In this document: positions 1 to 340 of the stretch, in pieces
How positions within the stretch are numbered: the first letter of the stretch is position 1
Layout: each line of letters opens with the position of its first letter
Sequence record: AH003496.2
Reading direction: 5' to 3' (one strand)
From: a phage
Length of the DNA: 340 nucleotides
Notes under the pieces: model-generated
Seen by the model: the letters and a program-made list of their open reading frames with translations, nothing else
Told to the model about the DNA's origin: nothing
Database searches by the model: none
Position numbers and translations under genes: made by a program

Positions 1-11
1 GGGGATACGTG

Positions 12-36
12 CCCCTCCACCGCCACCCGCACCCCC
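12..36 (-). other. Mirror G-rich tract on the - strand (the + strand here is C-rich: CCCCTCCACCGCCACCCGCACCCCC) with the same G-quadruplex potential
   Basis: Reverse complement of 305-329. Within 11-40 the + strand has 21 C and 3 G, a strong strand compositional bias. Confidence 0.3.
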
Positions 37-47
37 TACCAAAATAA

Positions 48-103
48 TTTCCGTCTGTCAATACCCCCTGCATCCGATAGGCCCGAACTATCACAAACGG
101 AAA
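48..103. repeat. Nested imperfect inverted repeat inside the left arm: 13-mer TTTCCGTCTGTCA (48-60) and the reverse complement of 91-103 (TTTCCGTTTGTGA), 11/13 identical, 30-bp spacer
   Basis: Direct reading of the sequence; the spacer contains a smaller 5-bp stem, GATAG (76-80) with CTATC (88-92). Confidence 0.5.
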
Positions 104-120
104 AGCGATAGCCCAAAACA

Positions 121-220
121 NNNNNNNNNNNNNNNNNNNNNNNNNNNNNNNNNNNNNNNNNNNNNNNNNNNNNNNNNNNNNNNNNNNNNNNNNNNNNNNN
201 NNNNNNNNNNNNNNNNNNNN
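121..220. other. Run of 100 N: undetermined or masked sequence (conventional-length assembly gap or deliberate mask); true length and content unknown
   Basis: Exactly 100 consecutive N characters; 100 N is the common placeholder for a gap of unknown size in scaffolds. Confidence 0.95.
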
Positions 221-237
221 ATTTTATTCCTATCGCT

Positions 238-293
238 TTTCCGTTTGTGATAGTTCGGGCCTATCGGATGCAGGGGGTATTGACAGACGGAAA
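238..293. repeat. Mirror copy of the nested 13-mer inverted repeat inside the right arm: TTTCCGTTTGTGA (238-250) and the reverse complement of 281-293 (TTTCCGTCTGTCA)
   Basis: Follows from the arm symmetry and was confirmed by reading 238-250 and 281-293; with the left arm this gives four copies of the motif TTTCCGTYTGTSA in the window. Confidence 0.5.
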
Positions 294-304
294 TTATTTT
301 GGTA

Positions 305-329
305 GGGGGTGCGGGTGGCGGTGGAGGGG
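305..329 (+). other. G-rich tract with G-quadruplex-forming potential on the + strand (GGGGGTGCGGGTGGCGGTGGAGGGG); i-motif potential on the opposite strand
   Basis: G runs GGGGG (305-309), GGG (313-315), GG (317-318), GG (320-321), GG (323-324), GGGG (326-329). Only three runs of three or more G, so a canonical three-tetrad quadruplex needs a bulged GGCGG tract or a long loop; a two-tetrad quadruplex fits easily. No structure prediction was run. Confidence 0.3.
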
Positions 330-340
330 CACGTATCCCC

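Follow-up and report, generated by a model that had tools for sequence, protein, structure and literature searches.

Phages of the PRD1 type have linear dsDNA genomes of ~15 kb whose 5' ends are both linked covalently to a terminal protein, and their replication is primed by protein from these ends, as described in the sections of PMC5175343 drawn on here. According to the same sections, PRD1 initiates opposite the fourth nucleotide of a terminal 3'-CCCC, with three sliding-back steps (PMC5175343). Passages of a preprint describe linear orthogonal plasmids in E. coli that carry 110-bp PRD1 inverted terminal repeats (ITRs) at both ends and are replicated by PRD1 proteins that a helper plasmid supplies; P12 and P19, the two ssDNA-binding proteins (SSBs), are said to be dispensable in this engineered system (bioRxiv 10.64898/2026.09.28.754915). 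The engineered replicon supports the ITRs as the probable cis origin, and the passages concerned report no comparison with an ITR-free molecule. For PRD1 and adenovirus, the literature offers panhandle and homology-restoring models (PMC11886824, with reference to Savilahti and Bamford 1993 and Wang et al. 1991). In the panhandle model, as outlined in the part of PMC11886824 used here, the displaced single strand anneals through its own ITRs, and the resulting panhandle acts as an origin and restores the homology of the ends. According to the same part, panhandle structures have yet to be demonstrated directly (PMC11886824).

Layout of the record and match to the PR772 genome ends

The stretch of phage DNA analysed here (the window) is the full source record of 340 bases. 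It has a symmetric layout of 120 bases, exactly 100 N (positions 121-220) and 120 bases, and real sequence is confined to bases 1-120 and 221-340. Positions 1-111 and 230-340 are exact reverse complements (111/111 bases), as determined both by direct reading and with a script, which confirms the perfect 111-bp inverted repeat described in the initial annotation. The complementarity breaks at 112/229, where positions 112-120 (CCCAAAACA) and the reverse complement of 221-229 (GAATAAAAT) match at 3 of 9 bases. Both boundaries of the repeat are thus visible, the inner one at 111/230 and the outer one at the end of the record. The repeat-finding tool reported one inverted pair with 170 nt per arm at 96%, a value for which the N run was scored as matching. 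Given the base composition of the arm obtained by script (C 0.38, A 0.30, G 0.17, T 0.15), the computed probability that 111 bases in a row match is ~0.29^111, or ~1e-60, and a chance origin of the repeat is excluded on account of this probability.

The only ORF in the window has 26 codons, lies on the minus strand and was taken as a chance occurrence. An Rfam scan of the window with E values up to 10 gave zero matches. When a single arm was folded as ssDNA, the z-scores (-1.2 and -1.6) could not be distinguished from those of shuffled sequences, so that a single arm does not constitute a structured element.

A BLAST comparison with 50,697 phage records placed the two halves of the window at the two ends of a single genome. 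Positions 1-120 are 100% identical over 120 nt to bases 3-122 of AY441783.1, and positions 221-340 are 100% identical over 120 nt to bases 14825-14944 of the same record, which is deposited as 'Bacteriophage PR772, complete genome' (linear, 14,946 bp; Tectiviridae, Alphatectivirus PRD1). The matched stretches fall under its annotated '5' terminal repeat' and '3' terminal repeat'. Since both halves are 100% identical to the ends of PR772, a plasmid-dependent relative of PRD1, the arms are, as judged from sequence, the 110-111 bp ITRs of a PR772-type tectivirus genome.

Positions 221-340 are also identical to the final 120 bases of a further PR772 record, AY848688.1, and in both PR772 records the 111-nt arms are base-for-base the same as those of the window. 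The unique bases that flank the arms agree with AY441783.1 at both sides. The window is nevertheless not byte-identical to either record: AY441783.1 has TT added outside the GGGG at both ends, and the window equals this sequence minus the outer TT, whereas AY848688.1 has G at position 115, where the window has A. Owing to this A/G difference, the window was not copied from AY848688.1. Position 115 is A in the window, in AY441783.1 and in most relatives; PR4 shares the G of AY848688.1.

The N run and the genome termini

A distance of 14,702 bases separates the two halves of the window in AY441783.1 (between bases 122 and 14825), and the arms are ~14.7 kb apart in every complete relative. The interval in AY441783.1 contains the whole gene set of the phage. 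The genes for the terminal protein and the DNA polymerase adjoin the left repeat; onward lie the structural, packaging and lysis genes, and two genes for ssDNA-binding proteins, on the opposite strand, adjoin the right repeat. Given this spacing in the complete relatives, the N run most likely stands in for ~14.7 kb of genome and does not represent a centre of 100 bases. A gap of exactly 100 N is the usual convention where the length of a gap is unknown. The 'undetermined centre' around which the initial annotation placed the repeat is not sequence, and most likely does not exist as a core of 100 bases. We hold it to be highly probable that the window presents both physical ends of the linear dsDNA genome of PR772, or of a near-identical isolate, joined by 100 N.

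The same layout could be read as a true short molecule, in which two PR772 ITRs, each with 9 nt of unique DNA, surround a real unsequenced centre of ~100 nt. Such a molecule could have arisen as a defective mini-replicon when the interior was deleted, or have been engineered as a linear ITR-cargo-ITR replicon whose cargo is represented by N. This would agree with a source of only 340 bases and a centre of exactly 100 N, and is viable in principle, given that the PRD1 machinery replicates ITR-flanked linear DNA in E. coli and that such replicons have been built by synthetic biologists. However, the exact 120 + 100 + 120 symmetry and the 100-N gap look constructed rather than measured. Inside each arm, the 9 nt simply continue the natural genome sequence, without the cloning sites described for engineered replicons, and there is no such construct in the plasmid collection. 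We regard a short molecule as unlikely. Its natural form, a mini-replicon within a PR772 population that has lost all but both origins and a ~118-nt centre and is replicated in trans by P8/P1, is very unlikely; to our knowledge, a natural 'minimal protein-primed replicon' has not been described for tectiviruses.

The reading of the window as two joined genome ends can be compared with the position of the repeat in related phages. BLAST of each half matched 36-38 phage records, which are alphatectiviruses except for two, and these two exceptions are a 21-nt, chance-level match to Halorubrum virus. The matching relatives are PR4, PRD1, PR5, PR3, L17, RH-42-1, CSP1, BCE1 and the recent PKJ and PRD-colour isolates, with identities of 89-98% to the ends of PR4, PRD1, PR5, L17, PR3, RH-42-1 and CSP1. 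In complete genomes the matches are always located at the ends of the record, and in complete linear records of ~14.9 kb they begin at base 1-3 at one end and stop at the last 0-2 bases at the other. A terminal location in a linear genome of ~15 kb holds for all relatives; the window's own interior is N. The sequence GGGGATACG opens the window as well as 7 of the 9 complete records, and in all 9 the perfect repeat extends 110-111 nt from the terminal GGGG to one common inner boundary.

The edges of the window thus coincide with the physical genome termini of these phages, and for this reason the repeat would not extend outwards. The suggestion in the initial annotation that the visible 111 bp may be only the inner part of a much larger inverted duplication is not supported by the complete records. 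The length of the repeat, which had been considered anomalous, is that of PRD1-type phages, which carry terminal repeats of 110-111 bp; the repeats are real, already known and ordinary for this group.

Arms of perfect identity that are separated by an N gap are also what a self-scaffolded contig would show, and the repeat could in that case be an assembly or sequencing artefact, either a chimera formed by fold-back or a short contig joined in scaffolding to its reverse complement, with a single copy of the arm in reality. Such an origin would not account for the divergence of the arms at 112/229 into the distinct left and right unique regions of PR772, nor for the same two-copy arrangement, with a common boundary, in nine separately deposited genomes that include Sanger-era ones, and we give it hardly any credence.

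Some records differ in their outermost bases. AY441783.1 has its extra TT at bases 1-2 and 14945-14946, and PR3 (AY848685.1) has an extra T at base 1 and at the last base. The annotated 110-nt repeat of AY441783.1 is thus offset, and the perfect repeat in this record is 113 nt long. The extra terminal T residues are probably artefacts of end determination, and not biology.

Inverted repeats that begin with GGGG and have a short apparent spacing between the arms could also mark the ends of a transposable element (for example one derived from the Tn3 family, or a miniature one) or the flanks of an invertible switch; Tn3-family ends begin with GGGG. We searched for the arm outside the known phages. 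Among 72,556 plasmids there is no copy of it, the only match being a 27-nt chance match to a Streptomyces NRPS gene, and 5,426 complete E. coli genomes contain no arm match. A conserved 24-mer of the arm has zero matches in GTDB (185,579 bacterial and archaeal species, one genome each). All real matches are ends of linear tectivirus genomes, and the matched genomes offer no transposase or invertase context. A mobile-element or inverton origin is accordingly extremely improbable. Terminal repeats of transposons or insertion sequences, including Tn3-family and miniature elements, were rejected for the lack of chromosomal or plasmid copies in the plasmid, E. coli and GTDB collections, and an inverton was rejected as the arms lie ~14.7 kb apart at the termini in all relatives, with no recombinase annotated in those genomes.

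In environmental collections the conserved 24-mer was found only in a metagenome contig of 14,388 bp, which is also present in IMG/VR, and in an IMG/VR contig of 14,954 bp. All of these matches are at the ends of tectivirus contigs of 14.4-14.9 kb, and none is in a record of 340 bases. In IMG/VR the outermost 18-mer of the arm is restricted to the two ends of the 14,954-bp contig (bases 1-18 and the final 18), and the PR772-specific left junction has no exact match in IMG/VR. The 14,388-bp contig (IMGVR_UViG_3300015214_001290 = Ga0172382_10008414, present in IMG/VR and in the JGI metagenome collection) is an alphatectivirus genome. Its right end (14259-14388) carries the arm without the outermost ~32 nt, and its left end lacks the repeat entirely, a loss that is typical for protein-capped ends in shotgun assemblies.

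Anatomy and concerted evolution of the arms

To describe the arms we aligned the left and right arms of the nine complete records and of the window (20 arms from 10 sources). The features are collected in Table 1.

Table 1. Features of the 340-base window, with mirror positions in the right arm where they apply
Feature	Position	Mirror	Strand	Observation
Left ITR	1..111		+	Equals AY441783.1 bases 3-113 at 100%; reverse complement of 230-340
Right ITR	230..340		-	Minus-strand reading equals 1-111; under AY441783.1 '3' terminal repeat'
Terminal 5'-GGGG (complement 3'-CCCC)	1..4	337-340	+	Kept in 9/9 genomes
Invariant outer block	1..18	323-340	+	0 variable columns in 20 arms from 10 sources
Variable middle	19..76	265-322	+	Holds 25/25 between-genome variable columns
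Invariant inner block (35 nt)	77..111	230-264	+	One exception, at ITR position 91
First 9 unique bases inside left ITR	112..120		+	Equals AY441783.1 114-122; start of early promoter region
N run	121..220		.	Exactly 100 N; most likely gap/placeholder
Last 9 unique bases inside right ITR	221..229		+	Equals AY441783.1 14825-14833

The two arms of one genome show 0 differences, except for 1 in L17 and in PR3, while arms of different genomes show up to 22 differences in 110 positions, the maximum being reached by PRD1 against L17 or PR3. Identity over the whole genome is 93-98% for the pairs compared, and 96.2% for PRD1 against L17. The variable middle has 0 differences within a genome: its sequence changes from phage to phage, but the two ends of each phage agree. 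This part of the ITR thus diverges faster than the genome average, and each change is present at both ends, which is concerted evolution of the arms. Gene conversion, recent duplication and artefact had all been proposed as causes of the identity between the arms; because the arms evolve in concert, ongoing gene conversion is favoured over the other two. Concerted evolution is what the published panhandle and end-repair models predict.

A different balance is observed between PR772 and PR4, with only 2 differences in 110 ITR positions, yet a genome identity of 93.0%, the opposite of PRD1 and L17. This contrast in the divergence of ITR and genome hints at an exchange of ends between lineages.

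The invariant outer block is presumably the core of the replication origin, where the complex of terminal protein and polymerase would bind, a role that is suggested by published work on PRD1. The invariant inner block may have a functional role. Its one exception is ITR position 91, where the right arm of L17 and that of PR3 each show a single T/A mismatch to the left arm. The two arms are hence not always fully homogenised, or are homogenised less efficiently close to the inner boundary.

In the reference genome the left ITR lies upstream of the early operon for terminal protein P8 and DNA polymerase P1, and the unique DNA at the right end lies, on the minus strand, upstream of the early genes XII and XIX, which encode ssDNA-binding proteins (XII at 14220-14702 and XIX at 13863-14147 of AY441783.1, both on the minus strand). 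In the PRD1 record M22161.1, bases 111-232 are annotated as 'promoter region' and the terminal-protein CDS starts at 233. Scanning the reference ends for promoters gave one promoter-like site, at AY441783.1 147-176, in the unique region beyond the reach of the window, and none within the repeat. The repeat also contains a perfect TTGACA at 280-285 on the plus strand (mirror 56-61, minus strand), within a conserved ITR sub-block that reads TGTCAATA in the left arm on the plus strand. This hexamer points outward to the genome terminus, and the consensus scan of the reference ends called no promoter there.

Replication and comparison with known systems

The following scheme takes priming, sliding-back and the ITRs as a cis element from the published work. 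A complex of P8 (terminal protein) and P1 (DNA polymerase) would bind each end of the genome, and synthesis would begin opposite the fourth C of 3'-CCCC, after which three slides back would regain the terminal bases. The GGGG at 1-4 and the CCCC at 337-340 provide the reiteration that sliding-back requires. The genome would then be copied by strand displacement, with each 5' end keeping its attached terminal protein. The arms are probably kept identical by mutual copy correction during replication: the repeats of the displaced strand would anneal to a panhandle, which would be repaired and used again as an origin. The panhandle as the correcting step is a model that we infer for these phages.

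As terminal repeats of the PRD1 type have been described as protein-primed origins for decades, the repeat carries little weight as a discovery. When both edges of a record carry a long inverted repeat with zero divergence that starts with a short base reiteration, this reliably marks a protein-primed linear replicon, and such repeats are to be interpreted as 'genome ends' rather than as a suspect palindrome. The counts of 0-1 differences within and up to 22 differences per 110 nt between genomes give a clean illustration of concerted end evolution.

Like PRD1, phi29, Bam35 and adenovirus have ITRs on linear dsDNA with covalently bound terminal protein; the sections of the sources used here also describe for them terminal reiteration, internal initiation and sliding or jumping back (PMC5175343; PMC4974454). 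The origins of these three have no detectable sequence similarity to the arms of the window. The repeat of phi29 is 6 nt, compared with the 111-nt arms of the window, and the initiating position differs, being the second T in phi29, the third base in Bam35 and the fourth C, with three steps, in PRD1, so that the numbers of back-steps also differ, according to the same sections (PMC5175343; PMC4974454).

The agreement with the alphatectivirus ITR family is much closer. The identity with the PR772 ends, the terminal position in the relatives, the reiteration and the concerted evolution were all observed in this work, and the arms have the sequence identity, inverted orientation, length, inner boundary and terminal reiteration of this family. 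The ITRs of PRD1, PR4, PR5, PR3, L17, RH-42-1 and CSP1 lie at the genome ends, differ from those of the window by 2-14 substitutions or indels, all within ITR positions 19-76, and share with them the length of 110-111 nt, the invariant blocks 1-18 and 77-111 and the inner boundary.
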